This document shows positions 1-21,697 of a stretch of 32,000 nucleotides of DNA, piece by piece. A model generated the notes under the pieces. The model was not told where the DNA came from, did not search any database, and saw nothing but the letters and a program-made list of their open reading frames with translations. Both the position numbers and the translations under genes were made by a program. Position 1 is the stretch's first letter. Every line of letters starts with the position of its first letter. This DNA is from an uncultured Opitutales bacterium (GTDB taxonomy: Bacteria; Verrucomicrobiota; Verrucomicrobiia; Opitutales; UBA9783), in NCBI GenBank assembly GCA_934691225.1, contig CAKUSQ010000002.1, positions 1 through 32,000 on the forward strand, written 5' to 3'.

Positions 1-486
1 GTACAGATCGATGAAGGTTTTTGTGGGATCATCGAAACAATCCGGGCATTCTTTTTTAAATTATCCACCATTTCTTGAACCAGCTTTTTAGGAGTAAAAA
101 TTTGGTTCGTTTTTGAGGTGGAATGTAATCAAAAATATCTTCTTTCGCAATGTCTTCGAAATAATTGGCTAAACGTAGTTTCAAAGCCAAAAAATTTCGT
201 TGAGACTTTTCTTTTTTAATTCATCGTGCATAAAATGGAAAGTGATACCTTTGGAGGTATCTTGAGGATTGGAAGGTAGATGGCTCAACGTCTCATATTG
301 CTCCAAAACATGTTTTAGACATAGAGCACGAACAGCTGGATCGTAAAATGAAAAAACAAGACGATACAATGCTTTTAGATCATCACTGTTTGTAGTGAAA
401 TGAAGCGAAGGATACTCTTCAGTTAAAATTACATTCCCTTCGTCGAGTTCATATCTACTTGTTACATTTCCGCAATTACTTTTTAT
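1..486 (-). pseudogene. Fragment of a DNA-methyltransferase-like gene, paralogous to 18700..19809. The 5' end is cut near 486, the gene runs off the left window edge, and it carries at least two 1-nt indels.
   Basis: The reverse strand of 1..190 matches 19300..19470 at most positions by eye (ANYFEDIAKEDIFDYIPPQK, TNQIFTPKKLVQEMVDNL). Relative to the paralog, the T run at 110..114 is one base short (T5 vs T6). A second 1-nt deletion lies at about 45..58. The frame is open only up to a stop at 487..489. Confidence 0.6.
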
Positions 487-1690
487 TTAAAACCTTTTCA
501 TAAATAATTTTTGCGATATATTTATTCCCTAATGCGGAATGATGTCCATAGGTATCAATAAAATACTTTTCTAAATCATTTTTATCAAATGTATTCCAAA
601 AATCAAACATATCTAAGAAATTTAAATTTATTTTTTCACATATTGATTTCAGTTCATTTCTGTATAAATTGTTATTCTGTTGTATAAACTTTATATGAGA
701 ATAGGATGGGAGCATAATTAAATGAGGAATATGTTTTTTATTTTTACAAAACTGAACGAAACGTAAAAGTATAGCCTCCAATAATTTAGATTGTTGAGTA
801 TAAAGCATCTGTAAGTATTCATTTTCTTTTTGTAAATTTTTTACAATAAATGGTTCAGCATTTTTAAGGAAATTCTTTACATTTTTATCTTTAGAAAATT
901 TTAATCTATTGAATGCTAATAAATAATTTAGGAGATTTTTATCTTGAATTAAATAACTTAAAGCTGTTTTGGGAGACTGTTTTATGTTTTGCAAGAACCC
1001 TGGGTAATTACCATCGTATTTGTGTAAAAATTTTTCATAAGCTGGAATATTTTCAAATTCATTAACATCTTTTATAAAATTTTCAATGAATTTTAAATTC
1101 CCATTTTCTAAAACAAATCTTGGTTTTGCAGCTAATACGTTTCCAGGTTCACAATAATGTTTCCAAACACTTATTATTCTTTCTATTGTCCATGGAGTAA
1201 TTATCATTAATACCAGTTTTATGGATTTTTGTAATGGAGTAGATTCTAATCTTAAAACAGCTTGGTCTAAGCCGTAATTTCCAACGCCGTAATTTGAAAC
1301 GTAAGAATTTGTTAATTCAGATAAAAAGTATTGTATTGTTTCATCGTTGTTTACTTCTCTGCACATGCAGAAAGAATCCCCAAAGGTTGTTATGTATTCT
1401 GCCTGACTAAATGAATTTTCAAACGTCCTACTTCCAAATTTATCAATAGAATAAGAAGCTCCCCTGTCTACTCCTATATAAGAACCTGTATTATCAGGAT
1501 GATTAACTGTAGGAATAGGTTTCCATCCTAGATATTGATCGAAAGTTTTATATTTTTTAATAATTTTTTTATTAATTGAAGGAAATTCTTTGAAAAACAA
1601 TCCTGCTTTGATCAAATATCCTCTTAGAGATATTTCAATTATTAGTAATAACAAAATTAACAATACAAATAATATGCTAAACATTTTCAT
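476..1690 (-). CDS. Membrane-anchored SGNH/GDSL-like hydrolase or acyltransferase-family protein
   Basis: 404-aa ORF with an N-terminal hydrophobic helix (FSILFVLLILLLLIIEISL). It has a GDS block (TTFGDSFCM) and a C-terminal Asp/His block (DTYGHHSALGN). It is the last gene of the minus-strand operon, 31 nt after the nucleotidyltransferase gene. Confidence 0.55.
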   Translation of the reverse strand: MKMFSILFVLLILLLLIIEISLRGYLIKAGLFFKEFPSINKKIIKKYKTFDQYLGWKPIPTVNHPDNTGSYIGVDRGASYSIDKFGSRTFENSFSQAEYITTFGDSFCMCREVNNDETIQYFLSELTNSYVSNYGVGNYGLDQAVLRLESTPLQKSIKLVLMIITPWTIERIISVWKHYCEPGNVLAAKPRFVLENGNLKFIENFIKDVNEFENIPAYEKFLHKYDGNYPGFLQNIKQSPKTALSYLIQDKNLLNYLLAFNRLKFSKDKNVKNFLKNAEPFIVKNLQKENEYLQMLYTQQSKLLEAILLRFVQFCKNKKHIPHLIMLPSYSHIKFIQQNNNLYRNELKSICEKINLNFLDMFDFWNTFDKNDLEKYFIDTYGHHSALGNKYIAKIIYEKVLNKK

Positions 1691-1721
1691 TCTCTATAAA
1701 TAAACGTTTAAAAAAAATTGT

Positions 1722-2462
1722 TCATAACCAATCAAGCTCCAAATTTAAATCATTAACGGTATCAAACTCTGTCCAATGATTGTGTATAGGGACGCCAAAT
1801 ACAGGAAAGTTTTTATCAATGAGGAATTGTAAAAAGTCTGTCGTGTACGCATTTTTATAGTTCGGATGTACAGCCTTAAATGTTTTGTACATTTGTTTAA
1901 ATTCTTTAACAAATGGTGCTGAGATTTTAAATAATCCGATATATTGCCCCTGAATATCATCGAGCGTTTTTGGTTTCTTACCAAGTTCGAAAATTTTTTG
2001 CGAGATTGGATCCCAGCGAAATGTTTCAGCATCCTTGAGTGGATCTTCCATGCGATTATTCCAATACGTATGCCATCCAATGTCTGTAATTATATTGCAA
2101 GGATGGCTAGCGTTTAATAAAGCTTCAAAAACGGAATGATGATATATGATATCACCATAACTTATGATAATATCTTTAGACTCATCCATAAGATTTTCCG
2201 CGCAAAATAAACTGTAAAGCATATTTGTTGTGGCAAAATCTTTGTTCACAACAACCGGATGATCTTTTTTAGGTAAAGCTTCATTGTGATATCCGCCAAT
2301 AAGCGTAATATCTGTTAGAGCAAATTGTTTGAAAACTTCTAACTGATACTGAAGCAACATCTTCCCTTTGTAGGGGACTATACACTTAGGTTTAGTTTCT
2401 GTGTATGGCCGCAAACGTTTGCCTTCACCCGCACAAAGCACGAATATTTTAACATCTTTCAT
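1722..2462 (-). CDS. Nucleotidyltransferase (NTP-transferase fold); candidate Cj1416-like cytidylyltransferase
   Basis: 246 aa. The N-terminal signature LCAGEGKRLRPYTETKPKC fits GxGxRLxPxTxxxPK, and the C-terminal WTEFDTVNDL is typical of this fold. Its start overlaps the stop of the upstream amidotransferase-like gene by 14 nt. Confidence 0.75.
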   Translation of the reverse strand: MKDVKIFVLCAGEGKRLRPYTETKPKCIVPYKGKMLLQYQLEVFKQFALTDITLIGGYHNEALPKKDHPVVVNKDFATTNMLYSLFCAENLMDESKDIIISYGDIIYHHSVFEALLNASHPCNIITDIGWHTYWNNRMEDPLKDAETFRWDPISQKIFELGKKPKTLDDIQGQYIGLFKISAPFVKEFKQMYKTFKAVHPNYKNAYTTDFLQFLIDKNFPVFGVPIHNHWTEFDTVNDLNLELDWL

Positions 2463-3045
2463 AAAAATCTTTTATAAAATAATTAAACCAATTTAAAAAT
2501 GGTGGACGCTCTGGATGCCACATAAACGTTACAATCGGTAAGCTTTTATGGCACATGGCTTCACAATGTCCATCATTATCGATTGCTAAAATAAAAAATT
2601 CTTCTGGTATTTTATCTAATGTAAAATTATGAAAAGAATTAACATTAAAAGTTCCGCTTGGGATTCCGTAACGATTATCTTTTATCATTACATTGTGACA
2701 AATGCCAACATGATTTTCGATACAGACTAATTTAGAACCGAAATGTTGTCCGATGAACTGCATACCATGACAAATGCCGAACAGTGGCAAGTGATGTTTT
2801 ATGCAATATTCAATACACGCAGTTTCACAAATAGTACGTGTGCTATGATCATTGCCTCCGCTTATAAGAATACCATCTAGCGCCATTACATCAATGAATT
2901 TCGAAATATTGCAGGTGTTGGGAATAGGAACTGTGATAAAATCATTTTCTGATAATAATTTTATCCAACGTTGATCCAAAACATCACGTGTTTCACCGAT
3001 CGATTCGATGTAATCTACACGCTGAGTTATGCCTATCTTTAACAT
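2449..3045 (-). CDS. Class-I glutamine amidotransferase / peptidase C26-like hydrolase; candidate Cj1417-like gamma-glutamyl hydrolase
   Basis: 198 aa with the nucleophile elbow GICHGMQF, then SFHNF and MWHPE motifs in the order typical of the C26/GATase-1 family. It starts 3 nt after the stop of the kinase gene. Confidence 0.75.
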   Translation of the reverse strand: MLKIGITQRVDYIESIGETRDVLDQRWIKLLSENDFITVPIPNTCNISKFIDVMALDGILISGGNDHSTRTICETACIEYCIKHHLPLFGICHGMQFIGQHFGSKLVCIENHVGICHNVMIKDNRYGIPSGTFNVNSFHNFTLDKIPEEFFILAIDNDGHCEAMCHKSLPIVTFMWHPERPPFLNWFNYFIKDFYERC

Positions 3046-3048
3046 AAA

Positions 3049-6030
3049 CTACCGAATGATGTCAATTTTATGTGAAGCACAGTCTAATTGGATAAAGTGA
3101 GCCACTTTTAATTTATCAAATAAAGCCTCACCTACACCTATACTTGTCGGCAATTTAAACTCAGCACTACGAATGGCCATATGCGAATTAGGCCCTCCAT
3201 AAGCTGTAATAAGACCCGCGATTTCATAATTGAATATCCAATCAAATCCCGGATCAGCATTTTTGATTAAAACGATTTTATTTCTTAATTGTATGCTGTC
3301 TGCTTGCTTTGAATTTTTAAGATAAACAATTTCAGCTTCAATCGATTGATTACCGATAAAATTGGGCAATATTTTAGGAACAAAAAATCCGTAAAAATCT
3401 TCTAACTGTGTAATTAACGGCGGCAATTCGATACATTGTATAATACGATAGTATTCTTTGCCTTGTTCAATAAGCATCGAGAATATATGTTTGATATCTC
3501 GAACTGAATATAGCCCATTGCGCATATCTTCAAAGACATTTATGGGTAAATGAGCCACATCTTCGGTAGTAAAACCGTAAGTTTTACCCATTTCTTCTAC
3601 AAGATCCAAAATTAGAGAAATGTATCTTGTAAAAACAAACTTAGAATATTCACGTCCCGCGATGGCTTGCTTCAAAAACAACTTAAAATCACTTAAAGAG
3701 ATGCCAAAAATTTGTTTGAGACATTTCTCCAAAGCATCGTAATGGGGGGGGGTAATATTTGTAGCTTTTCCTGTCGCAATAGCTTTACCACCTACATTAC
3801 AAAATAGGTATTTATCGGGATCTGAATGGTAAGTTGGCGAAGTAATATCGTACGTCCCTGGCCTTAAATGACCATACATTTTGATGCAATCTTCTTTTGA
3901 AATTTTCCCTTCAATCGCTTGCTGAGTTTTTTCAAAAATTTGGCCTGCGATGGTTTGGATGTTTTCTGTAAGTGAGCTTTTTTCAGCTTCAGAAATAACA
4001 CCTTTCGCAACAAAAGACTTCAAAAACGAGCTAGCAATAAAACCACAGCGCGCTAAATGGGAAAAATTAAGTGTGCCTATTTTGCAGGTTTGCATCAAAA
4101 CGTAAATTTTGTCCAAAGGCTTCAAATGAGTATCTGCAATGCGCGAGAATCGTTTTTCAATAACATCCATTGCTTCGTAACACTTTTGGCATTTTTTAAA
4201 GCCAGCTAGAGTTAAATCAAGTAAAGCTTTTTCGTATTGCTGATACTCATTTTCGGAAAGTTTCGCTTCATTTATCAGCAAATCATGCCAACGATCTTTA
4301 AAGTCGACCGTATAACAGGTTGGCATCAACATAAATTCCAATTTATCGTGCCACTCCGGATTGTTTTTTAATCGATGGATGTAAAAATTAACTAACTTCT
4401 TTGTTGTATCTGTTGACAAATTGTTGGGCAAAAAGGAATGTATACTGGCACGAACATCCACGTAAGGATGTCCGGCAAAATTGATAATGAGCGGATAAGG
4501 ACGTACATCTTTGTATCCAAATTCCGCACGTTGCTGCGCCCAAATATCATTCGTAATAAGCGCTTGATAAAGCGAAATAGCCAAGCGATGCGGTTTTGTA
4601 CCTACAATTTCAGCAGGATTCCAGTCAGGCATTACGCCAAAGATAGTCGTATTGCCCTGTACATCAGGTTGGGCGGTTTGATAATCGACAAAGCGTTTTG
4701 CAGTACATTCTAAGTGCTCATCCAAACGATGATCACCAATCTCTCTCAAATGTTGCGATGCAATCGGTCGAACTTGGAAAATGTACAATTCTTCATCATT
4801 CGTAACGGCAAACTCAATGTCAAGAGCATCGAATTGCGTTAAAGTTTCGATTTCTTGAATAGTTTCGAATAATTTTCTATAAAAGTTAGGTGCATCTGAC
4901 GGAAGGTCGGCATACTTCCAATGATAAAACGTTTCATCTTGTTTGCTTGCACCACTTGTAATGGCGGCCGTATCTTTTTTATCGTAATTGACAACGTAGT
5001 AAGGTGCACCATAGTTAAGTGTTCTTGTAAAAACAACACCACTCACGTTGACATTGTGTAACATGGGTTGCACCAATACTAAATCTGCATTATTGTTTGC
5101 TCCATAAGAATGGATAACTTCCGTAATAGCTTTCGCTAAAGTATCACGTTCTGGGGTAACATTCAATACGCTTTCAAATTTACCTGCATTGGCTTTTGTA
5201 AAGCTGTCTTCTTGCAATGAACTGCTTCTTACAACAAGATCTTTGTCTCCAAAAGTCCTAAGTATCGTATCAATTACGTGATCTGGATTTTTAAACCATT
5301 GTTGTGTAGAAAAATGAATCTGCTCAAGAATACATGACTTCTTAACATGCTTTCTAAGCGCGTACAGCGTTTGTGCTTTCGTCGTCAAAACAAAGCGTGC
5401 AACGTCAATGGGATTACTTACTTCCGCCCATAAATTATGTGCGTTTACAAAATCAATTTTGAAACCTTTTTGTTGTAAACAATCAATAATACCTGATAAA
5501 CGATGCTCATTGAGTTTATCACAGAAACAACCTTCCTCTTTTAAAACTTTTAGCACACTGGGTTTTAAATAAACGCAACCTATAAAGGGATATTTTCTAT
5601 TGCTTTGCTTATCCACAAAAGCTTCACAGTTTTCTTTTGTTTCTAACAGTGAAATATCTTCATCTATAGCGATTGCAGCATCATTGGTTTGTTCAGCTGT
5701 TTGCAGCATTTGTTGTATTAACTGAGATCTGAACAAAACATCTCCATAAGCAACAAATGCCGGTAAATCTTCCACAAATCCTGAATTTTGCAAAGATACA
5801 TCACAAGATGTTTTATCCCACTGAGAATTAAAAACAAAATGCAAATCAGGATATTTATGGGCAATTTTATCAAACTGGTAGCCTCCCACAAAAGTAAACC
5901 GAGAACTTTCTCCTTCGAAGGCAGAAACTTGCCAATCTAAAACGGTTTCCTGCAAATTAACTTTTATATTCGTTGGGTTTTCAACAAATTGTTTTGACTT
6001 CCCAGCACCTAATATGATTACCTGTTGCAT
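3049..6030 (-). CDS. Fusion protein: N-terminal nucleotidyltransferase-like domain plus a PEP-utilising-enzyme-type kinase (PPDK-N ATP-grasp and C-terminal swivelling-His domain, no TIM barrel); candidate Cj1418-like L-glutamine kinase
   Basis: 993 aa. Residues 1-212 (ILGAGKSK ... WAEVSNPIDVARF) look like a complete NTP-transferase domain. VVRSSSLQEDSFTKANAGKFESVLNV is a PPDK_N signature. YGGPNSHMAIRSAEFKLPTSIGVG is the phospho-histidine swivel motif, about 50 aa from the C-terminus. Confidence 0.75.
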   Translation of the reverse strand: MQQVIILGAGKSKQFVENPTNIKVNLQETVLDWQVSAFEGESSRFTFVGGYQFDKIAHKYPDLHFVFNSQWDKTSCDVSLQNSGFVEDLPAFVAYGDVLFRSQLIQQMLQTAEQTNDAAIAIDEDISLLETKENCEAFVDKQSNRKYPFIGCVYLKPSVLKVLKEEGCFCDKLNEHRLSGIIDCLQQKGFKIDFVNAHNLWAEVSNPIDVARFVLTTKAQTLYALRKHVKKSCILEQIHFSTQQWFKNPDHVIDTILRTFGDKDLVVRSSSLQEDSFTKANAGKFESVLNVTPERDTLAKAITEVIHSYGANNNADLVLVQPMLHNVNVSGVVFTRTLNYGAPYYVVNYDKKDTAAITSGASKQDETFYHWKYADLPSDAPNFYRKLFETIQEIETLTQFDALDIEFAVTNDEELYIFQVRPIASQHLREIGDHRLDEHLECTAKRFVDYQTAQPDVQGNTTIFGVMPDWNPAEIVGTKPHRLAISLYQALITNDIWAQQRAEFGYKDVRPYPLIINFAGHPYVDVRASIHSFLPNNLSTDTTKKLVNFYIHRLKNNPEWHDKLEFMLMPTCYTVDFKDRWHDLLINEAKLSENEYQQYEKALLDLTLAGFKKCQKCYEAMDVIEKRFSRIADTHLKPLDKIYVLMQTCKIGTLNFSHLARCGFIASSFLKSFVAKGVISEAEKSSLTENIQTIAGQIFEKTQQAIEGKISKEDCIKMYGHLRPGTYDITSPTYHSDPDKYLFCNVGGKAIATGKATNITPPHYDALEKCLKQIFGISLSDFKLFLKQAIAGREYSKFVFTRYISLILDLVEEMGKTYGFTTEDVAHLPINVFEDMRNGLYSVRDIKHIFSMLIEQGKEYYRIIQCIELPPLITQLEDFYGFFVPKILPNFIGNQSIEAEIVYLKNSKQADSIQLRNKIVLIKNADPGFDWIFNYEIAGLITAYGGPNSHMAIRSAEFKLPTSIGVGEALFDKLKVAHFIQLDCASHKIDIIR
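3744..3752. repeat. Homopolymeric G9 (C9 on the coding strand) inside the kinase gene
   Basis: The direct read is aatGGGGGGGGGtaat. On the coding strand it is ACC CCC CCC CAT (T-P-P-H), currently in frame. I noticed no other G/C run of 7 or more in the window. Confidence 0.95.
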
Positions 6031-7164
6031 ATGTTTGATACGATCTCAAAGTTATTTAATGAATTCAAATCTTACAAGAATTTTTTCGCTGAAAATCATA
6101 AACAACACCGTCAGCTTGTCTTTTACTCCGAACGAGCTATTTACTATCAAACCTTCAGCCCATTTTTGGAAGAGCTTTTAAAAGATTCTTCTATAACATG
6201 TAGCTACATAACATCGGATGCGAATGATCCCATATTAACTCGCCATCATGGTCGTCTTTATCCATTTTATTTTAATTTTTTCTTAAAATCCGTTTTTGAT
6301 AAAATAGATACAAAGTGTTTCGTTTTTACGATGCCAGATTTGAACATGTACCATTTGAAAAAATCAAAACATACCAAGGAATATATCTACTTGTTTCACG
6401 CCTTTTCAAGTACACATTTGCAATATAATGAAGCTGCTTTTGATGCTTACGATACCGTTTTTTGTGTAGGGCCTCATCATATTAAAGAAATTGAAGCGCG
6501 AGAAAATCTATATCACTTGTATCATAAGAAATTGCTTTCTATAGGCTATCCTCGCATGGATATTGTGTATCAAAAATATCAATCCTACAAAAAACAATTT
6601 AAAAAAACGATATTAATTGCCCCAACATGGAGCATGGCAAGCTTATTTGAAAATGGAATTCGACCACTTCTGGATGCTTTATCTCAAACCAATTACCGCG
6701 TTGTTGTCCGTCCCCATCCAGAGTTTTTGAAACGAAGAAAATCTTTGGCTAATTCTCTAAAAAACTACATTTCAACGTTACAAAATTTCATTTGGGAAGA
6801 TCAATTACTAAACGAAGATAGTTTATACGAAGCGGATCTGCTTATCACAGATCGTTCTGGAATCGCCTTTGAATATGCTTTCGGAACAGAGCGCCCGGTA
6901 TTATTCATCGATACACCTTTAAAAGAGCACAATAAAAATTGGAAAGATTTAAATATCGAACCAATAGAACTGCAACTAAGAGATAAAGTCGGTATTAGCG
7001 TTAACTTAGATTTGGATAATATTTTACCGGTTATCGAAGATTTATTGAAAAATTCCGATAATTGGCGTGAAACATTAAAATCAATGCGCAATGAGCACGT
7101 CTTCCACTGGAATTGTTCAGCCAAAAAGGGGGCGGAGTATATAAAAAAGCAATTAAAAGCTTGA
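6031..7164 (+). CDS. CDP-glycerol glycerophosphotransferase (TagB/TagF)-family transferase
   Basis: The C-terminal half reads ILIAPTW ... VVVRPHP ... ADLLITDRSGIAFEYAFGTERPVLFID, the usual TagB/F pattern. The ORF track starts at TTG 6025, but ATG 6031 is the more likely start. Confidence 0.65.
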   Translation: MFDTISKLFNEFKSYKNFFAENHKQHRQLVFYSERAIYYQTFSPFLEELLKDSSITCSYITSDANDPILTRHHGRLYPFYFNFFLKSVFDKIDTKCFVFTMPDLNMYHLKKSKHTKEYIYLFHAFSSTHLQYNEAAFDAYDTVFCVGPHHIKEIEARENLYHLYHKKLLSIGYPRMDIVYQKYQSYKKQFKKTILIAPTWSMASLFENGIRPLLDALSQTNYRVVVRPHPEFLKRRKSLANSLKNYISTLQNFIWEDQLLNEDSLYEADLLITDRSGIAFEYAFGTERPVLFIDTPLKEHNKNWKDLNIEPIELQLRDKVGISVNLDLDNILPVIEDLLKNSDNWRETLKSMRNEHVFHWNCSAKKGAEYIKKQLKA

Positions 7165-7197
7165 TTTTTTGAATTCAAACAAGATAATTTCCTTATG

Positions 7198-7287
7198 AGC
7201 CAATCAGAGCCAATCAGAGCCAATCAGAGCCAATCAGAGCCAATCAGAGCCAATCAGAGCCAATCAGAGCCAATCAGAAACTATCAG
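7198..7287 (+). repeat. Tandem decanucleotide array: (AGCCAATCAG) x8 perfect plus one degenerate copy
   Basis: Eight identical 10-bp units span 7198..7277. A ninth copy, aaactatcag, has 3 mismatches. An ATG at 7195 immediately precedes the array. Confidence 0.95.
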
Positions 7288-7340
7288 AATGCCTTTATAC
7301 AAAATGGCAACCGGTTAAAGCGATAAATTCTTTTATTAAA

Positions 7341-8063
7341 TTGTTCGCTTTAGCTGATTCTAATGCAAAAAAGCAAGCTATTTTAAATCGCTTAAAAGAT
7401 TACTTCCTTGTTAAAAAGCAATTACCTCTCCATTATAAAGTCGCAAAAATTCTCGAAGAACAAGAAAAGAATTATGATTCTTACGACTACGGAGAGAGTT
7501 ATTTTTATCAATCTTGCAAGCCACTGCATATAACTGGTTTTCGTAATACAGAAGCAAGAATTGCCGGAATGAAATTGTATGAGCATTTAAAAGGGAAAAC
7601 GGTTTTGGACATAGGAACGAATGCCGGTTTTTTACCTTTGGAAGTTGCAGATGTTTGTAAATCTATCGATGCTTTTGATATCAATCCGTATTTAATTCGA
7701 ATTGCTAAAACTTCGGCAGAATTTCTGAATATCCATAACGTAAATTTTTGGGCTGGTGTTTTTGAAGATTACAATGAAGATAAGACATACGATGTTGTTT
7801 TATCTTTCGCCAATCATTCAACTTATGATCATAACACAAAGCAATCTGTGGAGGATTATTTTAAAAAATGTCATAAGTATGTAAAAGATGGCGGTATCCT
7901 GTTGTTCGAGTCGCATCACCCAAGTTATGAGACTCCAGAGCGTTTAGAAAAAGTTTTGGAAGTACTAAAGCGTTATTTTGACGTAGAAAGAATTTGCAAA
8001 TTAACACGAGGATCTTCCGGAGATCGCGGCAGAACATTTGCGATTTGTTCAAAAAAAGCTTGA
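7341..8063 (+). CDS. Class I SAM-dependent methyltransferase
   Basis: 240 aa with motif I VLDIGTNAGFLPLEVA followed by an acidic loop (AFDINP). The annotated start is TTG and the first in-frame ATG is codon 77. The frame stays open upstream to 7188, through the repeat array. Confidence 0.7.
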   Translation: MFALADSNAKKQAILNRLKDYFLVKKQLPLHYKVAKILEEQEKNYDSYDYGESYFYQSCKPLHITGFRNTEARIAGMKLYEHLKGKTVLDIGTNAGFLPLEVADVCKSIDAFDINPYLIRIAKTSAEFLNIHNVNFWAGVFEDYNEDKTYDVVLSFANHSTYDHNTKQSVEDYFKKCHKYVKDGGILLFESHHPSYETPERLEKVLEVLKRYFDVERICKLTRGSSGDRGRTFAICSKKA

Positions 8064-8097
8064 AAAATATAAATGATTCATTTTGGATATTTATGTT

Positions 8098-8247
8098 ATG
8101 TTATGTTATATAGATCCAGGTTTAGGTGGCTTGATTGTGCAGAGCCTAATTGCGGGTTGTTTAACCGTTGTATATTTCTTTAGGAGTACCATCGCTAAGA
8201 TTTTTACACCGATTAAAAAATTGTTTTTTAAAGAAAAAAAGAGATAA
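8098..8247 (+). CDS. 49-codon ORF encoding one hydrophobic helix; possibly the detached 5' end of the next gene
   Basis: ATG 8098 gives MLCYIDPGLGGLIVQSLIAGCLTVVYFFRSTIAKIFTPIKKLFFKEKKR, with a stop at 8245..8247. It was absent from the ORF track, presumably because it is short. It ends just after an A7 run (8234..8240). Confidence 0.35.
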   Translation: MLCYIDPGLGGLIVQSLIAGCLTVVYFFRSTIAKIFTPIKKLFFKEKKR

Positions 8248-8284
8248 TGGGCACCTACAGATATCTCATGGGAGTGTATTTTTT

Positions 8285-9784
8285 ATGTACTTAATTTTTT
8301 TCACACTTTCTTACCTGTTCTATTTTTATACAACAGGATGCAATTTTACATTTTTCTCGGTTTCTTACTTGATAGAAGCCAGTCTGTTTATCTGTTTTAC
8401 AGAAAGTATATTGGTATGGTTTGTTAAGAAAACAAAACATGAGGAATTTTTATTTTTTACGTTCACTTTGAGTTGCTGTTTTATGTTTTTCATACCGTTT
8501 ATGCAAGTGGTACGTATTCATTTTTTTCAAAATTTAAGAAATGATTTTCCTATTATGTACGCTCATAGATGGACGATAGCAATATTTTTCTTATGTTCGA
8601 GTCTTTACTTATTGTTCAAATTTATAAAAATTGTTAATTTTAATCAAAATTTAAAAAAATCATTGAATTTTTTTGCGATAATACTTTTTTTACTAACAAT
8701 TTGTAATTTTTCAAAAATTTATGGAAATAAAAATCATCAATCAAGAAATAGTGAGTGCTCTACTCGAGCCGATAGAAATAAATACCCCAACATATATCAT
8801 ATTGTTTTAGACTCATATGTATCCTGTCGTTATTTATCCGAAGCTTATGATTTTGATAATACCGATTTTTACAAACAGTTAAGCAATTTGGGGTTTTGGT
8901 ATGACATGGATGCGAAAAGCAATTATAGTAATACTATTCCGACTTTTTGTTCATCCTTTGAAATGAATTATTTGAATACGGATGAATATAACGAGTATGA
9001 TTTACAAAGACGTATTTACTTTAATAATAAAGCTATAAGGACTTTAAAAAACAAAGGTGGATATCAATGTTATATCAATTCTCCCGACGTACCAACGTTA
9101 GAATCCATTGAATTTGATTTTCGTACGAAGAGATCTCGTTTAGACTTTTATTATTATCTTTTTTTAAGAACACCATTGGAATTTTTCTTGTTTAAATCTT
9201 TTCTAAAGAAACATTACAATAATATTTTCAATCAATTCCATCAAATGGTTTCTGTTAAAGAAGCGTATGGAGAACGTGGTAATTATTTTTTATTTCACGT
9301 AATTTGCCCTCATGAACCTTTTATTTTTACTGCTTCCGGAGAGCAAAATCCAAATTTAATTTCTAATATAGAGTCTATGTTTAGACCTGATAATAATATA
9401 AAAAATAAGGCTAGCGAATATTTAAATCAAATTAAAAATCTTAACGCTTTAACGTTAAAAGTCGTAAAGCAAATCCTAGATTCATACGATGAAAATAATA
9501 AGCCAATTATTATTATACACGGTGATCACGGCCTATCTGTGCAATCGTTGAGCGAGATTAATGCTTGGCGCTCAAATGATCTAAAACCAATGGATAGAGC
9601 TATGTTGAGCATTTTATATACTGTTTATTTGCCAAAATCATTAGGAAATTTACCTCCTCCCGAAGGCCTTGTAAATTTATACAGATGGTTGATAAACAGT
9701 CTATTTCAGGAAAAGATGGACTACTTGCCTTCAAAGCAAATTATGCGTATTGATAATTGTTTCATCCCTAATATCAATGTGTAA
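8285..9784 (+). CDS. Polytopic membrane protein with a C-terminal sulfatase / alkaline-phosphatase-superfamily domain (LtaS/EptA-like phosphotransferase type)
   Basis: Four to five hydrophobic segments are followed by YPNIYHIVLDSYVS (metal/nucleophile region) and IIIIHGDHG. ATG 8285 is the first ATG in the 8168..9784 frame. Confidence 0.6.
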   Translation: MYLIFFTLSYLFYFYTTGCNFTFFSVSYLIEASLFICFTESILVWFVKKTKHEEFLFFTFTLSCCFMFFIPFMQVVRIHFFQNLRNDFPIMYAHRWTIAIFFLCSSLYLLFKFIKIVNFNQNLKKSLNFFAIILFLLTICNFSKIYGNKNHQSRNSECSTRADRNKYPNIYHIVLDSYVSCRYLSEAYDFDNTDFYKQLSNLGFWYDMDAKSNYSNTIPTFCSSFEMNYLNTDEYNEYDLQRRIYFNNKAIRTLKNKGGYQCYINSPDVPTLESIEFDFRTKRSRLDFYYYLFLRTPLEFFLFKSFLKKHYNNIFNQFHQMVSVKEAYGERGNYFLFHVICPHEPFIFTASGEQNPNLISNIESMFRPDNNIKNKASEYLNQIKNLNALTLKVVKQILDSYDENNKPIIIIHGDHGLSVQSLSEINAWRSNDLKPMDRAMLSILYTVYLPKSLGNLPPPEGLVNLYRWLINSLFQEKMDYLPSKQIMRIDNCFIPNINV

Positions 9785-9825
9785 GTACTTTGCGTATCGA
9801 TTTGATACTTAGCACCTGTTTGCAT

Positions 9826-10125
9826 TTAAGATTTCCATCTGTCTGCACATACGCTTTGTGGTAGTATTTGACATTCAGCGCGATATTGTGCCCCATACTT
9901 CACATAACTATCACATGCCCAGAGGATGTTCTTCTCTGTTGTCCTATCCTGCAACAACAACGCCAATATTTCCGGATCCAAATCGTAAATATTCTGCTCA
10001 AGTATATCGATATCCGCCTCATCATTAAACTCTAGCAACGAAAGCTGATAGTGTTTCGGCTTGTTTATCCGCTTTTTATACGAAACGAAAGTTTTTGTGG
10101 CACACGAACAAGACATGATTCTCAT
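9826..10125 (-). pseudogene. Orphan 99-codon ORF, probably the N-terminal stub of a larger gene
   Basis: There is no downstream partner. It ends 42 nt from the convergent end of the glycan locus. The LLLQDRTTEKNILWACDSYVKYG segment looks like a conserved N-terminal region, but I cannot place the family. Confidence 0.3.
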
Positions 10126-10422
10126 TACCCCTAAGAATAAAACTTGCTACATTTATATATCGGCTGTTTTGAGGAACAGCTTAGGGGTTTTTGTAAAAAT
10201 GTTCTTTTTTTGCAGAGTTTTTAAAGTGTATTTTAAAAACATTGAAAATTTACAACGTTTTTAAGCTTCGCCTAAAAGTGATTGCAGACCTCAGATCGCC
10301 AAAATTTGAAAAATTGACGGCGATTTCGTCATTTTTACTTGATTTTTGACGAAACCTTAGCCCTTTAAAAACTTCCAAATAATCTTTTGCAATTTTCCGC
10401 TATTTGCCTGATAATAACAGGT

Positions 10423-11357
10423 ATGGGAGACTTATCTTTGCAGAAATTATCAGCAAATCGAAGGAATGCGCAATTGTCAACGGGACCGAAGACGGAAGCA
10501 GGTAAGGCTAAATCGGCTTTGAATGCGGTAAAACATGGGATTTTTACGAAAAAATGTTTAAAAAATATTTCCAATGAAGAATTGCGGGATTACGAAACGC
10601 TTATATTTGGTGTATTGTTTTGAAGGATTTTTTACAAAAAATCCCTCAAACTCCCTTAAAACTTTTACTCATTTTGCAACATTGTTGCAAAATAACGAAA
10701 AAGTTTTGAAGGGTTAAGGGAAGCTTTTTTCAAAAAGTTCCCTTATGGCGTTTGCGGAAAGTGCTTGCGTTTGAGCAGGGCGCAATGCAATTGGAAATTT
10801 TGAATCTGGATGCGTCCAGTTCAGCGGTAGAAGTGATTAGACGAGAATCTCTTATTAGAGACTATGAGAACCACAAAGCCGAATGGGCGGATTTAAATCA
10901 GCTTAAAAAATGGTTAACTTCTAATAAAACAACAAATTTATCCCATTTATCGAGAGATTCCTATGAACTCTTAGAAGAAATCGTCCAAAAATTAAAACAG
11001 CGTTTCCGAGAAAACTACCGGCACATGGATATCGAACTTTTAGAAAATTGTGAACAGCTCAGCGAATTTTGCACCTGGAACGAGTTGGATCTCGACAGGT
11101 TTAAAGCTGACGTGTTAGAGAGCATTGAAGACAAATTGCGTTCAGGTAGCAATATGCCGAATTATTACGAAAATGGCATTAAAGAATTTGATCATAAGCG
11201 TTCCGTTTATGAATCCGTAGCTCAACTCCCCTCGGCTGAAAACACCGACAAAGTCATCCGCTACGAAACACATCTGCAACGCTCTATCGAAAAGAATCTG
11301 CGCTTGTTGCGCTCATTGCAAGGAATTGGGCAGATGAGTCTTGGGTTTGTTTGGTAA
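10423..11357 (+). pseudogene. Hypothetical gene split into two ORFs (10423..10623 and 10710..11357) by a hairpin-rich insert
   Basis: The first ORF is MGDLSLQKLSANRRNAQLSTGPKTEAGKAKSALNAVKHG... The second frame is open from 10710 and reads ...WRLRKVLAFEQGAMQLE... before the TTG at 10752. Confidence 0.45.
10625..10742. other. About 120-bp block of three consecutive hairpins (MITE-like or REP-like insert, or a structured RNA)
   Basis: Hairpin 1 pairs 10625..10633 with 10636..10644 (ggatttttt/aaaaaatcc). Hairpin 2 spans 10653..10713: a 14-bp outer stem with one bulge and a 10-bp inner stem (attttgcaac/gttgcaaaat) around a 3-nt loop. Hairpin 3 spans 10718..10742 (gggaa..ttccc). Confidence 0.6.
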
Positions 11358-11362
11358 AATAA

Positions 11363-11391
11363 CTTTTCTTAGTGAAATTTACTAAGAAAAG
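11363..11391 (+). terminator. Perfect 11-bp stem-loop just after the 201-codon ORF
   Basis: cttttcttagt (11363..11373), loop gaaattt, then actaagaaaag (11381..11391). No clear T tract follows, so terminator function is uncertain. Confidence 0.35.
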
Positions 11392-11524
11392 ATAATTGAC
11401 TAAATTTTCTTAGCAGGCGTGGAGTATTCCTTCAGTATACTCTTTTTGCATATAAAATTAAAACTTTTAGGTTTTTTCATAAAATTTTTCAAAAAACTAA
11501 ATTTTTCCTAAAGTTTTTTAGAAA

Positions 11525-12856
11525 ATGGCTGATATATTTAGTATGGAAATAGTGAAGAAATTCGGAATTATAGTGATTGTGTTCTTGGTAGCGCAATCGT
11601 GGTTATTGGCTATACCAGAGTTTACTTTGCCTGTAGGGACGCCTGGAAGGCAGGAACAGATCGACCCTTTAGGGCAAATTCAAGCCCTTACAAGTTATCA
11701 AAATAGGCAATTTTGTGAAGACGTTCATATTCCAAATACAAATTGCCACTTATATTTCCCAATAGATGGTTCTCAACCTAGTACGCAAGATGCTGGGCTA
11801 TGGTCAGGAGCCCAATACGTTGGTCAACTTAATGATAATGAGGTAACCAATTGGTGGGTGAGGGTTTTTGGAGGGAATAAGGCAGTTAATTTTTCAAACG
11901 TAGGACAAGCACAACAACCTAAAGAACCCAAAATGGGATTTGCTAATGGATTTCCGGAAGTCATAATTAAACTTGGTTCAGCAGGTTTGAGGCAACAATT
12001 TTGGCGAACTTTTCGCGATATTGCTGCTGATCCTGTCGGTCGAGTTTTGTTGTATCGCTTGTTTATTGAGATTAGAAGAAGAGATAATGGTACATATGAA
12101 GGGTGTTGCGGAAATGATGTTATTTTACCAATAGCTTACAATTTAAATAGACGAAATACTTGTAGAAGTATAACTATTGTGTCTACGAACGATGGTTTTG
12201 CTTTTGATTTTTACAACCATACAATAGAATTTGATCTTAATGTTAACATAACTACTTCAACATTAGCTCTAAATGGTAATAATGAATTAACAACAGATGA
12301 AGAAAATCGTACTTACGATATTGCTCTATTTCATGAAATGTTACACTGGTTTCATAGCTTAAGAAATCCAAATCGTTTTAGTAATCTAGATTCTGATGAT
12401 CCTCTTGAATTCAAATACCCTTTACGTTGTTATTATGGAAACATAAACGAATTATGCGTTTGGGATGCAACTGCCGATGCAGAAGATATGGCAACAATTT
12501 TAGGATGTCCCAATTTGAATATACCTAATTTATTGCCACTCATTGCTAATAATGCATTTTTTTTACATAGGAATAACCATAATGATAGGCCTGTACAAAT
12601 TAATGGGATAAATCAATTTATCCCTATTGCAGAAACTTTTTTAAATGGTGACGATTTATCTGAAAATGTTTATCGAGCTTCCCAAGGACAACATATGCGT
12701 TTTGGGCATGTGACGACAGAAATTGAACCCGTTTCCTATCCTCGCGTACCCAATCGTTTTAATTTAGCTCATGAAATTGTGATAGAATGTTATCGTCAAA
12801 TTACAAATGGCAATCTACAGAATTGGAGGCTAATTCGTGGACAAGCAATTCAATAA
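11525..12856 (+). CDS. Secreted or membrane-anchored HExxH protein (putative zinc metalloprotease; effector or toxin candidate)
   Basis: 443 aa with an N-terminal hydrophobic segment (FGIIVIVFLVAQSWLLAIP) and a single HExxH motif in the context DIALFHEMLHWFHSLRNP. Confidence 0.5.
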   Translation: MADIFSMEIVKKFGIIVIVFLVAQSWLLAIPEFTLPVGTPGRQEQIDPLGQIQALTSYQNRQFCEDVHIPNTNCHLYFPIDGSQPSTQDAGLWSGAQYVGQLNDNEVTNWWVRVFGGNKAVNFSNVGQAQQPKEPKMGFANGFPEVIIKLGSAGLRQQFWRTFRDIAADPVGRVLLYRLFIEIRRRDNGTYEGCCGNDVILPIAYNLNRRNTCRSITIVSTNDGFAFDFYNHTIEFDLNVNITTSTLALNGNNELTTDEENRTYDIALFHEMLHWFHSLRNPNRFSNLDSDDPLEFKYPLRCYYGNINELCVWDATADAEDMATILGCPNLNIPNLLPLIANNAFFLHRNNHNDRPVQINGINQFIPIAETFLNGDDLSENVYRASQGQHMRFGHVTTEIEPVSYPRVPNRFNLAHEIVIECYRQITNGNLQNWRLIRGQAIQ

Positions 12857-12897
12857 TATGCTTGACAAATTTAAAAGAACAAAAACATCATAAAATC

Positions 12898-13296
12898 GTG
12901 AAAACAATAATTAAAACAATTTTTCTAACATTATTAGGCAGCGTTGCGTTGAACTTTTTAAATGCTGGTATGCCAGAAATAAGGAGCGAAGAATCAAAGA
13001 TAAGAACGGAGATTTCTGGTTTACGTGGAAACAATCTTACGCCTGAAGTATTGGAGGCTATTATAGAAAAAATACAAACGGTTTGTAGTGTTATTGAAAA
13101 AGGAATAAATAGCCTAAAAGGTCATGATCGTATGGCCGGTGCACAAGCTTTAGGACGTTTAGAAGCAGATTTAGCATTTTTAAAAGCAATCCTTAAATAT
13201 GTAGTAAATTCCAGTACAGAAAATAAAACCTTATTAGATTCTTTTGCAAAGAGCAGTTATAGGTATAGTGTTTTGTTAAAAAAGCTAAATATTTAG
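12898..13296 (+). CDS. Small secreted helical protein of unknown function
   Basis: The in-frame GTG at 12898 gives a signal-peptide-like start, (M)KTIIKTIFLTLLGSVALNFLNAG. The ORF-track start at 12787 would overlap the preceding gene by 70 nt. Confidence 0.45.
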   Translation: MKTIIKTIFLTLLGSVALNFLNAGMPEIRSEESKIRTEISGLRGNNLTPEVLEAIIEKIQTVCSVIEKGINSLKGHDRMAGAQALGRLEADLAFLKAILKYVVNSSTENKTLLDSFAKSSYRYSVLLKKLNI

Positions 13297-13451
13297 TAAA
13301 ACTTCTGAAAAAGTTAAAGAAAAATTCGGCACTGGGTTTAGTATTTATGTGGACTAGAACTCGAAAAATTACCTTTTAACCTTTTATTTTGTAATAGCTC
13401 ACTGCCTTTTATCAGTATGTACGAAATCCCCATCAAAGTATCGTAACGTAA

Positions 13452-14375
13452 TTAATCCATCCCAGCCTCCGGATTCAGATACAACAACTGTTGCCACCGG
13501 CCTGTTTTCTTGCGGATACAGCCGGGGAGGCGGCTCATATGGGAAGGGTTTTTGCAGGCGGTATCGATGCCAAGAGGTTTTAAGCATTGCTCGAAAAATT
13601 TCTGCTCGATTTTTATTTTCCATTCATCGAGGGTATGAACATCGGGTATGCGAATCCAAGCGTGTATACTCTTATTACCGGAATCGATGAGGGCAACCAC
13701 GGGTAGTTCGTGGAGTGCCACTCCCAAAAATGCAAATTGTTCATTACGAGATAGCGTGTCAAATTTCAGTACGGCGAATTTAAATTTGCAAACGGCTTCG
13801 TCGCAACGATAAGATAGGGCCTTGGATTTTGTTGGATGCAGTTGTCCATCGACGGAATTTGGGCAAATAAACGGTAAAGACATTGGATTTTTTTTGAAAA
13901 GATCTATCCATTGACGGACTGTTCGAACTTTTGTATCATATTGAGTGCCGATAAATAAGAAATCATCAGGATCGTAAAGTGTTCGCAAGAAAAGTACCGT
14001 ATCTTTTTCTGGAGCATCAAATAATCGAACTGGGGAAGCTTCCCAGAAATCAACCTCTTCTGTTCCCTTGCCTTTTTCTAGCAGATGATCTCGATATTCT
14101 GAAGAAATTTTTGATTTGGACACAGAATTTTTAAATGGTTTTTCAAATATGCTACGGTAAGGAATGTAATCGCTCTTCGCTTTTGAAATGGCAGCATAAA
14201 TTTCACTGTCAGGAACGTAGCGGGTTCCATTGGGGATATGTTGTCGAATGTCTGCAAAGATTTGTTCCTCCGAAAGCCCTTCGCGAATTCCGCAGTTAGC
14301 GACTCCAAGAAGAGCTGTATGGCAACCCTTACCCAGAGCTGGGATTGAATAAAGTTTTTGAATATAAGTAGTCAT
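13452..14375 (-). CDS. Primase-like / replication-initiation protein of the integrative element
   Basis: 307 aa with the motif ALIDSGNKSIHAWIRIP (an SGxxSxH-type motif seen in primase-polymerase-like island proteins) and the C-terminal RLPGCIRKKTGRWQQLLYLNPE. It lies next to the Walker-A protein gene. The family assignment is from memory. Confidence 0.45.
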   Translation of the reverse strand: MTTYIQKLYSIPALGKGCHTALLGVANCGIREGLSEEQIFADIRQHIPNGTRYVPDSEIYAAISKAKSDYIPYRSIFEKPFKNSVSKSKISSEYRDHLLEKGKGTEEVDFWEASPVRLFDAPEKDTVLFLRTLYDPDDFLFIGTQYDTKVRTVRQWIDLFKKNPMSLPFICPNSVDGQLHPTKSKALSYRCDEAVCKFKFAVLKFDTLSRNEQFAFLGVALHELPVVALIDSGNKSIHAWIRIPDVHTLDEWKIKIEQKFFEQCLKPLGIDTACKNPSHMSRLPGCIRKKTGRWQQLLYLNPEAGMD

Positions 14376-14381
14376 GGTATT

Positions 14382-14499
14382 CCTTTAAAATTGTCACAAC
14401 TGTCACAAAGTGTCACATTCGATTTTGTGACAGTGCTTTGTTAGTATTCATGCAGGATAGAAAGCGTTTTTAGTTACTGTCACGATTGTCACAATAGAC
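14382..14499. repeat. TGTCAC iteron array, copy A
   Basis: TGTCAC occurs at 14392, 14401, 14411, 14478 and 14487, and inverted (GTGACA) at 14427. Spacing within clusters is 9-10 bp. The array overlaps the last codons of the DUF3987-like gene (..YCDNRDSN*). Confidence 0.85.
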
Positions 14500-15771: not shown

Positions 15772-16003
15772 GATAACCTCCCTTCTTATGTAAATTGCAG
15801 TCATTTTGAGTATCCTCTATCGCTTGAGCAATGAATTCATTCAAATCTTCCTGCCGAAATTTCCGCAGACGTCCTAGCTTAACCGACTTCAACGGGTAAC
15901 GTTTCGTCGATAACCAAACCGCTATCGTGTTCGGTTTTACGCCTAGGTAGTCCGCGGCTTCTTGTATTGATAATAATTTTTTAGTGTTTTTATCCATATA
16001 CAC
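15764..16003 (-). CDS. Excisionase / AlpA-type helix-turn-helix DNA-binding protein
   Basis: 79 aa. LSIQEAADYLGVKPNTIAVWLSTKRYPLKSVKLG matches the HTH_17/Xis pattern. It sits between the integrase side and the replication genes. Confidence 0.7.
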   Translation of the reverse strand: MYMDKNTKKLLSIQEAADYLGVKPNTIAVWLSTKRYPLKSVKLGRLRKFRQEDLNEFIAQAIEDTQNDCNLHKKGGYHV

Positions 16004-16031
16004 AATTAAACCACAGAATGAACAAACATTA

Positions 16032-18303: not shown

Positions 18304-18420
18304 TTTTTGTTCAAAATGTATCCATTTACGTCCATCTTCATAAGACACATAAGAGCATGAAACGCTGATAAATACAAGTAAATAAAAATATATAAAAATT
18401 TGTAAAAAATAAAACTCACT

Positions 18421-21620: not shown

Positions 21621-21697
<77 letters not shown>

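Follow-up and report, generated by a model that had tools for sequence, protein, structure and literature searches.

A predicted variant phosphoramidate locus with a nucleotidyltransferase-fused, glutamine-kinase-type protein in an uncultured gut Opitutales bacterium

The first 10 kb of a 32,000-nucleotide (nt) stretch from an uncultured Opitutales bacterium (assembly GCA_934691225.1, contig CAKUSQ010000002.1; the whole stretch is called the window here) carry seven genes which resemble in part the O-methyl phosphoramidate (MeOPN) capsule pathway of Campylobacter jejuni. A kinase, a GATase-type hydrolase and a nucleotidyltransferase (NT) are encoded in the order of Cj1418, Cj1417 and Cj1416 and are followed by an SGNH protein. 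A divergent group encodes a TagF-like transferase, a methyltransferase and a membrane enzyme. An earlier note on this DNA, made from its letters, had placed the same seven genes at the same coordinates and assigned the same folds; both were reproduced, as were the gap of 3 nt and the overlap of 14 nt between the core genes. The catalytic motifs are intact in all seven proteins. The features are as follows.

476-1690, minus strand: membrane-anchored SGNH/GDSL-fold protein, 404 amino acids (aa), member of an orphan family of ~400 aa (alignment and AlphaFold)
1722-2462, minus strand: stand-alone NT, 246 aa, predicted CTP:phosphoglutamine cytidylyltransferase in the Cj1416 position (NTP_transf_3, NTP_transferase)
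2449-3045, minus strand: GATase-type hydrolase, 198 aa, predicted gamma-glutamyl-CDP-amidate hydrolase, Cj1417-like (NF045546, GATase/Peptidase_C26)
3049-6030, minus strand: kinase open reading frame (ORF), 993 aa, start codon on the CATATG side at 6028-6033
3049-5406, minus strand: L-glutamine-kinase-type core of the kinase, residues 209-993 (NF004508/PRK05849, Pfam PPDK_N and PEP-utilizers)
3744-3752, minus strand: poly-C9 tract, a coding-strand homopolymer, in frame, codons T-P-P at about residues 758-760 of the kinase
5407-6030, minus strand: degenerate NT-like domain, residues 1-208 of the kinase (Pfam NTP_transf_3, 22 bits, E 2e-4)
6031-7164, plus strand: TagF/TarL-like CDP-X phosphotransferase, proposed phosphoramidate transferase (Pfam Glyphos_transf, PF04464); the 379-aa ORF spans 6025-7164 and the gene is taken from the ATG
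7195-8063, plus strand: class-I S-adenosylmethionine (SAM) methyltransferase gene, phase-OFF here (Methyltransf_31, _25, _23; SAM motif LDIGTNAG); its 240-aa ORF spans 7341-8063
7197-7278, plus strand: perfect 10-nt tandem repeat GAGCCAATCA x 8.2 (TRF score 164, 100% matches)
8168-9784, plus strand: polytopic membrane protein, 538-aa ORF, with an alkaline-phosphatase-superfamily domain (EptA/EptC/MCR-1/LtaS type) in the periplasm, true start probably near 8285

The genes are tightly packed. Three nt (3046-3048) separate the kinase and GATase genes, and the GATase and NT genes overlap at 2449-2462. The start codons of the kinase gene on the minus strand and of the TagF-like gene on the plus strand abut in the sequence CATATG (6028-6033) with zero intergenic bases. 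Any promoters must sit within the opposite gene. In related Opitutales and Puniceicoccales the two genes are also positioned head to head, either overlapping or less than ~200 nt apart. A scan for promoters and terminators gave no useful signal, with 38 sites where 48 would be expected. The locus borders on ordinary polysaccharide genes (AsnB-like and GT4).

The kinase matches the model NF004508 (PRK05849, the Cj1418 type) with 882.4 bits at a cut-off of 501. The match covers model positions 5-788 of 789 and residues 209-992 of the protein. Models of phosphoenolpyruvate (PEP) synthase reach at most 69 bits and the rifampicin phosphotransferase model 19.5 bits. Pfam reports PF01326 (PPDK_N) and PF00391 (PEP-utilizers) only; the PEP/pyruvate TIM barrel is absent. 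The core thus described consists of a PPDK_N ATP-grasp domain and a swivelling phospho-His domain, together with a central domain specific to the family. The ATP-grasp and swivelling domains are shared with PEP synthase, pyruvate phosphate dikinase and rifampicin phosphotransferase, yet in contrast to PEP synthase and rifampicin phosphotransferase the kinase has neither a TIM barrel nor a rifampicin-binding domain. A PDB sequence search with the kinase gave no match. The annotation at JGI labels fragments of the same protein 'glutamine kinase'. The kinase departs from the single ~780-aa module of NF004508 by 208 additional aa at its N-terminus. We call relatives with this extension fused and those without it unfused; the unfused kinases compared here are linked to genes for adenylylsulfate (APS) kinase-like proteins. 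Curated NCBIfam models and these APS-kinase-linked unfused loci served as stand-ins for the C. jejuni Cj1415-Cj1422 sequences.

The fused and unfused kinases are only ~38% identical. Another substrate could go along with the additional domain and the altered set of downstream enzymes, i.e., the fused type might phosphorylate some other amide, amine or hydroxyl compound, and the resulting CDP-linked donor with a P-N or P-O bond would then not derive from glutamine. We consider this improbable. Of 165 core residues that are invariant in 19 fused kinases, 113 are also invariant in six unfused ones, among them the central-domain motifs and the swivel residue His950 in GGPNSHMAIR. NF004508 does not distinguish the two types (887-1000 bits for fused relatives, 980-994 for unfused ones). 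Further, a hydrolase for a glutamine amide is kept beside the kinase in both. Phosphorylation of L-glutamine therefore stays the preferred prediction for the kinase.

The 208 additional residues have a recognizable origin. A profile of this N-terminal domain matches the stand-alone NTs of these loci at E 1e-22 to 1e-28, and any NT in the PDB at E 0.02 or worse. As the match to the loci's own NTs is by far the better one, the domain is, judged by its profile, a degenerate paralogue of the cytidylyltransferase that belongs to this pathway. It lacks the nucleotide loop GxGxRLxPxT...PK as a result of a 4-residue deletion, and the only conserved Arg/Lys in this region is [KR]11. YGD (D97), D123, E136 and W201xE203 are retained. 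Substitution of this domain for the stand-alone NT is ruled out: both are present in nearly every fused locus. We propose a role as scaffold, in channelling, in docking or regulation of the NT, or in binding of a cytidine nucleotide. Most likely the domain would tether or regulate the real NT and so pass on a labile phosphoglutamine. The earlier note had overlooked this domain.

The GATase has the family NF045546 (gamma-glutamyl-CDP-amidate hydrolase) as its top match with 125.6 bits, a score below the curated cut-off which is weighed further down; the next family scores 63.8. Pfam matches are GATase and Peptidase_C26. The Cys-His-Glu triad is intact, with Cys92 in GICHGMQ and His177 and Glu179 in WHPE. 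The gene lies directly downstream of the kinase gene in 75 of 85 loci. These scores and this synteny do not fit a PuuD- or anthranilate-synthase-type protein that merely happens to be located here. An NT of the same orthologue group is encoded after the GATase in 73 of the 85 loci, both types included. In the window, this stand-alone NT has the canonical loop CAGEGKRLRP...PK, YGD and WTEFD. LicC (1jyk) is its nearest sequence in the PDB.

In C. jejuni, Cj1418, Cj1416, Cj1417 and Cj1415 together convert glutamine, ATP and CTP into CDP-phosphoramidate 3'-phosphate (PMC11800397). By comparison with these enzymes the glutamine-kinase-type protein of the window would act first and its product would pass to the stand-alone NT, which would couple it to CTP and give CDP-L-glutamine. 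The GATase-type hydrolase would then strip off glutamate and leave cytidine diphosphoramidate. That the locus makes a glutamine-derived, CDP-linked phosphoramidate-type donor is likely. The claim of a core like Cj1418, Cj1417 and Cj1416 in the same gene order holds at the level of sequence. This includes both statements made about the large protein, that it is a PPDK-N kinase with a C-terminal swivelling His domain and without TIM barrel and that it is Cj1418-like as opposed to a PEP synthase or rifampicin phosphotransferase.

The distribution of this core was examined in a scan of one genome per species, which returned at least 591 stretches encoding a relative. Gene neighbourhoods were counted on the ORFs of the best 79 of these loci using phmmer and all-against-all clustering. 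The 79 loci belong to Verrucomicrobiota, Pseudomonadota, Bacteroidota, Acidobacteriota, Chloroflexota, Planctomycetota, Cyanobacteria, Myxococcota, Actinomycetota, Bdellovibrionota, Spirochaetota and Campylobacterota. Relatives thus occur in more than 590 species and at least 12 phyla; Marinobacter, Legionella septentrionalis and Halomonas are named carriers, and fused homologues also come from Pseudomonas and Marinomonas. Pseudomonas veronii, P. chlororaphis, Marinomonas algicola and L. septentrionalis are cultured carriers of the fused module. An exhaustive search yielded 1,560 clusters at 50% identity and E <=1e-30, and most of the best 150 are ~1,000 aa long. The kinase-GATase-NT triad is nearly universal among the loci. 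Forty-one related loci carry a TagF-like gene of the window's subfamily, and all of them are of the fused type or have truncated copies; in 32 of these loci no more than 150 nt separate the TagF-like gene from a kinase, GATase or NT gene. Three more fused loci carry another Glyphos_transf subfamily. Most of the TagF-linked loci are from metagenome-assembled genomes; Rhodoferax sp. TH121, Bosea sp. UC22_33 and Glycocaulis profundi are among the cultured organisms that have one. The search for the triad together with a TagF-like gene in other genomes was thus productive, and the architecture is widespread and not peculiar to this organism, a point which the earlier note had missed.

The counterpart of Cj1415 follows the opposite pattern. 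Within 10 kb on either side, an APS-kinase-like gene is found in only 2 of ~69 fused loci, both from Rheinheimera. Seven of eight unfused loci have such a gene, and none of the eight has a TagF-like gene. The unfused APS-kinase-linked loci are from Lachnospiraceae, Azospirillum, Bacteroidetes and Sericytochromatia. Two variants appear to exist, one like that of C. jejuni with a 3'-phosphorylated donor reminiscent of 3'-phosphoadenylylsulfate (PAPS), the other with a fused kinase and tied to a CDP-X phosphotransferase.

Two side observations concern these neighbourhoods. In 30 loci, both types included (e.g., L025-L029, L037, L042, L044, L046, L052-L056, L078 and L082; L numbers denote individual loci), the kinase module is joined by a gene for a ~300-aa formyltransferase-like protein, which often lies between those for the NT and the TagF-like protein. 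The window lacks this gene. Locus L059 (CAMCVN010000005.1) is labelled as a metagenome-assembled genome (MAG) of Bifidobacterium breve; its gene content is near-identical to that of the Solirubrobacterales loci L052-L054 and L065, which suggests a binning error.

The window belongs to the second variant. Its TagF-like protein scores 50.5 bits on Glyphos_transf (cut-off 22.1). The family profile matches TarL (8va1, E 1e-5) and TagF (3l7i, E 3e-4); a PDB search with the single sequence gave no match and only the profile reaches the PDB. H125 and H131 in the N-terminal half and H231 in the motif RPHP are invariant, and the latter aligns with the HP motif of TarL and TagF. Two histidines are described as essential in TagF-like enzymes (Schertzer 2005, as cited in PMC11924219). 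H125 and H131 are candidates for the first of these. Fold family and R-P-H-P motif are shared with TagF and TarL. The relationship is very distant, and the window protein is a single 379-aa polypeptide without the polymerase accessory domains. The gene is tied to a phosphoramidate-donor module and not to genes that make CDP-glycerol or CDP-ribitol.

An APS-kinase-like gene is missing. A phmmer search with three proteins from unfused loci found none in L001-L007, which cover window positions 1-16030 and ~7 kb to the left, and an approximate E. coli CysC query did not match there either. The window ORFs scanned over 10.7-32 kb contain no APS_kinase Pfam match. The statements that the divergent operon contains a TagB/F-family transferase and that a Cj1415-type kinase is absent from the locus are therefore both borne out, the latter for the window and 7 kb beyond its left end.

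The TagF-like enzyme would take the place of the missing steps. The donor would skip 3'-phosphorylation of the C. jejuni kind, and the enzyme would attach the phosphoramidate to a hydroxyl group of a sugar and release CMP, in the way its family uses CDP-glycerol. We put forward direct use of CDP-amidate as a tentative assignment, plausible though somewhat short of probable. One may argue that TagF-family enzymes normally take CDP-glycerol or CDP-ribitol and that ordinary polysaccharide genes adjoin the locus. In this case, the CDP-amidate would be 3'-phosphorylated by a kinase encoded elsewhere and used by another transferase, and the TagF-like enzyme would decorate the same polysaccharide with glycerol-phosphate, ribitol-phosphate or the phosphate of another alcohol. 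Near some fused loci (L055, L061, L008, L037) there is a gene for an APS-kinase-like protein or for a thymidylate-kinase-like P-loop protein, in agreement with such a division of labour. On the other hand, no gene for CDP-glycerol or CDP-ribitol synthesis is located within the locus, the TagF-like gene keeps its place next to kinase, GATase or NT in the 32 loci from many phyla, with abutting ATGs in this lineage, and ~67 of the 69 fused loci have no APS-kinase-like gene within 10 kb. This explanation is unlikely.

For transfer from an unconventional CDP donor a precedent has been reported. In the FtaABCD system of Clostridioides difficile a CDP-amino-acid donor is built and, in its CDP-linked form, modified by a methyltransferase, and a TagF-like enzyme moves the phospho-group onto a sugar (bioRxiv 10.64898/2026.02.12.704994). 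FtaABCD and PA1088-1091 of Pseudomonas aeruginosa share with the window a CDP-activated donor, a SAM methyltransferase and a TagF-like phosphotransferase (bioRxiv 10.64898/2026.02.12.704994). They differ in that the donor is CDP-(N-methyl)threonine with a P-O bond and the target is O-GlcNAc on flagellin; neither a PEP-utilising-type kinase nor a GATase is present. By analogy, FtaABCD is a direct precedent for the proposed donor logic of methyltransferase and TagF-like enzyme. It also lends itself to another reading. FtaD is a TagF-like enzyme which uses a CDP-amino-acid donor, CDP-N-methylthreonine, and FtaC methylates the CDP-linked intermediate. The TagF-like enzyme of the window might correspondingly transfer phospho-L-glutamine from CDP-L-glutamine, and the GATase would trim the glutamyl moiety on the glycan or control flux. 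The product would be a phosphoglutamine decoration or a phosphoramidate formed after transfer. Against this speak the properties of the GATase. It is a small soluble protein without signal peptide, the nearest family works on a nucleotide-linked intermediate, and its gene is placed between those of kinase and NT, with overlapping genes, in both pathway types. We give this possibility little credence and retain removal of glutamate before transfer as the preferred order of events.

The methyltransferase gene is interrupted in the window by the 10-nt repeat, which lies in its 5' coding end directly at the ATG at 7195. With eight copies, the frame from this ATG ends after 43 codons, and the body of the gene persists as the ORF 7341-8063. 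With 3, 6 or 9 copies, found in other samples, the gene is in frame and encodes 272, 282 and 292 aa, respectively. At least 11 contigs have gene calls of 240 aa which stem from versions out of frame. Thus, the start of a 240-aa methyltransferase given in the earlier note has to be replaced by the ATG at 7195 with a frame broken by the repeat. The assignment as a SAM methyltransferase stands, as Pfam finds class-I families. The samples with 3, 6, 8 and 9 copies have flanks that are 99.96-100% identical or share a protein cluster at 90% identity. The repeat aside, L001 matches the window exactly over 16 kb, and L002 differs by 3 bases in 7.2 kb and is identical across a further 8.8 kb. A sister species (P0219) lacks the 10-nt repeat. 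Repeat searches of 1-10.5 kb detected nothing apart from the 10-nt array.

The second tract is the poly-C run in the kinase gene. Its length varies from C6 to C9 within the 90% cluster of the kinase, the members of which are 97-100% identical. The C9 version encodes the 993-aa kinase and is present on 18 contigs. C8 truncates the protein at 778 aa ('ITPPITMLW...'). C7 also truncates it ('ITPPLRCFGEM...'), with matching downstream remnants, and is present on an 877-kb contig. C6 is in frame with one Pro fewer ('ITPHYD'). As the lengths of both tracts vary and shift the frame among near-identical strains, they behave as contingency repeats, and judged from these alignments the two tracts appear to act as frame switches in the locus. 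Both had been missed before. The poly-C tract in the kinase would switch the whole pathway stochastically, the 10-nt repeat in the methyltransferase would switch methylation only.

Could the locus simply be decaying, with the frameshifted methyltransferase and the split kinases as pseudogenes or assembly errors? Homopolymers and repeats are error-prone in assemblies, and the sister Opitutales locus L009 has a truncated kinase, no GATase and a mobile element inserted alongside. Yet in the window lineage the changes are confined to the two repeat tracts within 16 kb of 99.96-100% identical flanking sequence, in-frame and out-of-frame lengths recur across independent samples and sources, and catalytic motifs elsewhere are intact. 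Decay is very improbable, and switching remains the preferred reading.

In C. jejuni, too, simple-sequence repeats in coding regions switch expression. The MeOPN transferases of C. jejuni switch through poly-G tracts. The switches of the Opitutales locus, in contrast, are situated in the kinase (poly-C) and in the methyltransferase (10-nt repeat). As a parallel to the two switches, MeOPN and its methyl group are variably present in C. jejuni (PMC9561416), and the phase-variable genes described there are the MeOPN transferases (PMC9561416).

Two further enzymes would modify the glycan outside of the cytoplasm as accessories. The SGNH protein has invariant G104-D105-S106, G135-V-G-N138 and H383 in an alignment of 40 sequences. 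Its AlphaFold model (pLDDT 94) matches GDSL lipolytic proteins and esterases, TesA and PatB. The invariant blocks and the modelled fold agree with the earlier SGNH call, and the protein is probably a glycan O-acyl esterase or transferase. The 538-aa membrane protein has no Pfam match of its own; its relatives carry PF00884. D215, H382, D453 and H454 are invariant, and T256, the Thr nucleophile, is nearly so. The AlphaFold model (pLDDT 81.5) has EptC (6a82), PbgA (6xlp), MCR-1 (9nww) and EptA (5fgn) as best folds, and a PDB sequence search with the membrane-protein profile A4 gave no match. N-terminal transmembrane helices, a periplasmic alkaline-phosphatase fold and the Asp/Thr/His/Asp-His set are common to this protein and EptA, EptC, MCR-1 and LtaS, at ~10-13% identity to the solved structures. 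A formylglycine sulfatase was considered and rejected: the motif C/S-x-P-x-R is missing after D215, where the sequence is SNTIPT, and the nucleophile is Thr. On the basis of the Asp/Thr/His set and the matches of the modelled fold, the protein is a phosphotransferase-type member of the alkaline-phosphatase superfamily. Of the former designation as a membrane sulfatase or LtaS-like enzyme, the membrane enzyme of the alkaline-phosphatase superfamily is upheld and the sulfatase is dropped. Membrane proteins of this superfamily accompany the fused module in ~12 other loci. The set of downstream genes, i.e., TagF-like transferase, methyltransferase and alkaline-phosphatase-superfamily membrane enzyme in place of Cj1415, is thus present as had been described.

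Compared with the MeOPN capsule pathway (Cj1415-Cj1422), the locus shares the order of the kinase-GATase-NT triad and the families NF004508 and NF045546, and it likewise has a SAM methyltransferase and a dedicated transferase adjacent to the triad within a surface-polysaccharide locus. It differs in lacking the Cj1415-type cytidine diphosphoramidate kinase of APS-kinase fold and in having a degenerate cytidylyltransferase domain at the N-terminus of its kinase. Its candidate transferase is TagF-like; in C. jejuni, Cj1421 and Cj1422 are required for attachment (PMC11800397). Its methyltransferase is outside the subfamily found beside unfused kinases. Relative to C. jejuni, it adds the SGNH and EptA-like enzymes. 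Finally, the host is a gut commensal of the Verrucomicrobiota, unlike C. jejuni. In the proposed scheme, the SAM methyltransferase would methylate the transferred group or the CDP-linked donor, resulting in a MeOPN-like decoration.

The scheme builds on what the sequences show: the families of the proteins, their intact catalytic motifs, linkage of the genes across phyla and polymorphic tract lengths. On balance, we lean towards the locus as a whole being a surface-glycan decoration module with a variant phosphoramidate pathway. That it represents a second and more widespread route to phosphoramidate glycans, characterized by an NT-fused kinase, direct use of the donor by a TagF-like enzyme without 3'-phosphorylation and, in this lineage, switching at two levels, is possible rather than probable.

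Several points weigh against these proposals. The 125.6 bits of the GATase fall short of the curated NF045546 cut-off of 250. GATases encoded beside these kinases, whichever the locus type, all reach 113-134 bits on this model, which points to a narrow model and not to an aberrant protein. No curated NCBIfam model for Cj1416 surfaced in scans of the locus proteins. The search for a Cj1415-like kinase covered the surroundings of the locus, and an unlinked gene may reside elsewhere in the genome. Differences in homopolymer length can originate from assembly errors. The loci are phylogenetically non-independent, and only eight unfused ones were sampled. A methyltransferase of the window's subfamily is found in only 13 related loci. 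The Rheinheimera loci pair a fused kinase with an adjacent APS-kinase-like gene, and in the Marinobacter fused loci (L014-L019) a Sulfotransfer_3 protein takes the place of the TagF-like one. Both cases soften the strict rule according to which fused kinases go with TagF and unfused ones with APS kinase. Last, all substrates and products are predictions, as are the part played by the N-terminal domain and the use of CDP-amidate without further activation, and for any fused-type locus the support for the pathway chemistry comes from sequence.

Other enzymes occupy comparable positions elsewhere. One unfused locus (L084, a Bacteroidetes MAG) has a Sulfotransfer_1 protein beside the APS-kinase-like gene. 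A thymidylate-kinase-like P-loop protein is encoded in the Puniceicoccales loci, and three loci (L008, L037, L036) encode a 492-aa protein with an NTP_transf_5 and a thymidylate-kinase-like P-loop domain. Together with the Sulfotransfer_3 protein, these may be alternative transferases or donor-activating enzymes.

MeOPN has been described as known only from Campylobacter (PMC6429109) and the kinase as specific for C. jejuni (PMC9561416). One preprint on Borg elements predicts a MeOPN-like cluster in them. This prediction aside, we found no report of phosphoramidate glycans outside Campylobacter in the literature searched, nor a description of the fused kinase, its link to a TagF-like gene or its phase variation. 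Homologues of the kinase are not new per se because automated annotation already uses the term 'glutamine kinase'. New would be the logic of donor handling, the transferase family and the domain fusion; the core chemistry would be the same.

If the proposal is correct, P-N chemistry at the cell surface would be a common bacterial decoration, spread over more than 590 species in at least 12 phyla, and not a curiosity of Campylobacter, with core enzymes that are widespread in a distinct architecture with a transferase family of its own. Phosphoramidate-type decoration would then be testable in cultured Pseudomonas, Marinobacter, Halomonas, Marinomonas and Legionella and in human-gut commensals. 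The locus would be a natural experiment on the need of C. jejuni for a 3'-phosphorylated donor, and the role of the fused pseudo-enzyme domain can be probed by deletion. MeOPN is an important surface determinant of C. jejuni and has been linked to phage receptor function and serum resistance. The two repeat switches would suggest antigenic variation driven by phages or immunity in a gut Verrucomicrobiota species which bears type III secretion system (T3SS) genes.

The origin of the module has to be reconsidered. An integrase/DUF3987/HTH_17 mobile element and orphan genes occupy ~10.7-18.5 kb of the window. An intact tRNA-Met gene is located at 21621-21697 on the minus strand. Its 3' half (anticodon loop through 3' end) is present twice more, and one of these half-copies adjoins the integrase (18413-18486). 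The second lies ~0.7 kb to the left of the window (L001 16734-16809) and shares 93 nt of the downstream flank of the tRNA. The half-copies form direct repeats around ~19 kb including the locus, and the intact gene is inverted with respect to them. The locus as cargo of an integrase element was considered as a candidate and was rejected. Related Opitutales and Puniceicoccales have conserved the five-gene module of methyltransferase and TagF-like genes divergent from kinase, GATase and NT genes and have no integrases with it, and in L009 (12740-21384) the element is on the opposite side of the decayed copy of the locus. In L008 and L037 the module is near a tRNA-Met gene. The GC content of the kinase-GATase-NT triad is 0.360, equal to that of core genes; it is 0.258 for the SGNH gene and 0.288 for the membrane gene. 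The locus had been called AT-rich, which is correct for the latter two genes and not for the triad. With a conserved module, the placement in L009 and a triad at the GC content of the host, recent horizontal acquisition of the module, as proposed in the earlier note, is unsupported. In the same region and beyond it, ORFs of 300-440 aa at 11525-12856, 13452-14375, 16134-17099 and 18724-19809 have no Pfam or NCBIfam match.

The remainder of the window also encodes mraY, murD, topA and LptE. The nearest genome record, at 97% identity, is an uncultured Opitutales MAG from Hadza gut samples, and the exact 993-aa kinase is encoded on 18 human-gut contigs of up to 0.85 Mb. Homologues of SctU and SctT at 26787-28666 exceed the curated cut-offs of non-flagellar type III secretion, and for the flagellar FlhB the SctU homologue stays under the cut-off. 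These scores indicate that the human-gut Opitutales host bears genes of a T3SS export apparatus. Of a host that had been pictured as T3SS-bearing and chlamydia-like, the first attribute is confirmed with respect to these genes and the second gives way to an uncultured gut Opitutales bacterium.

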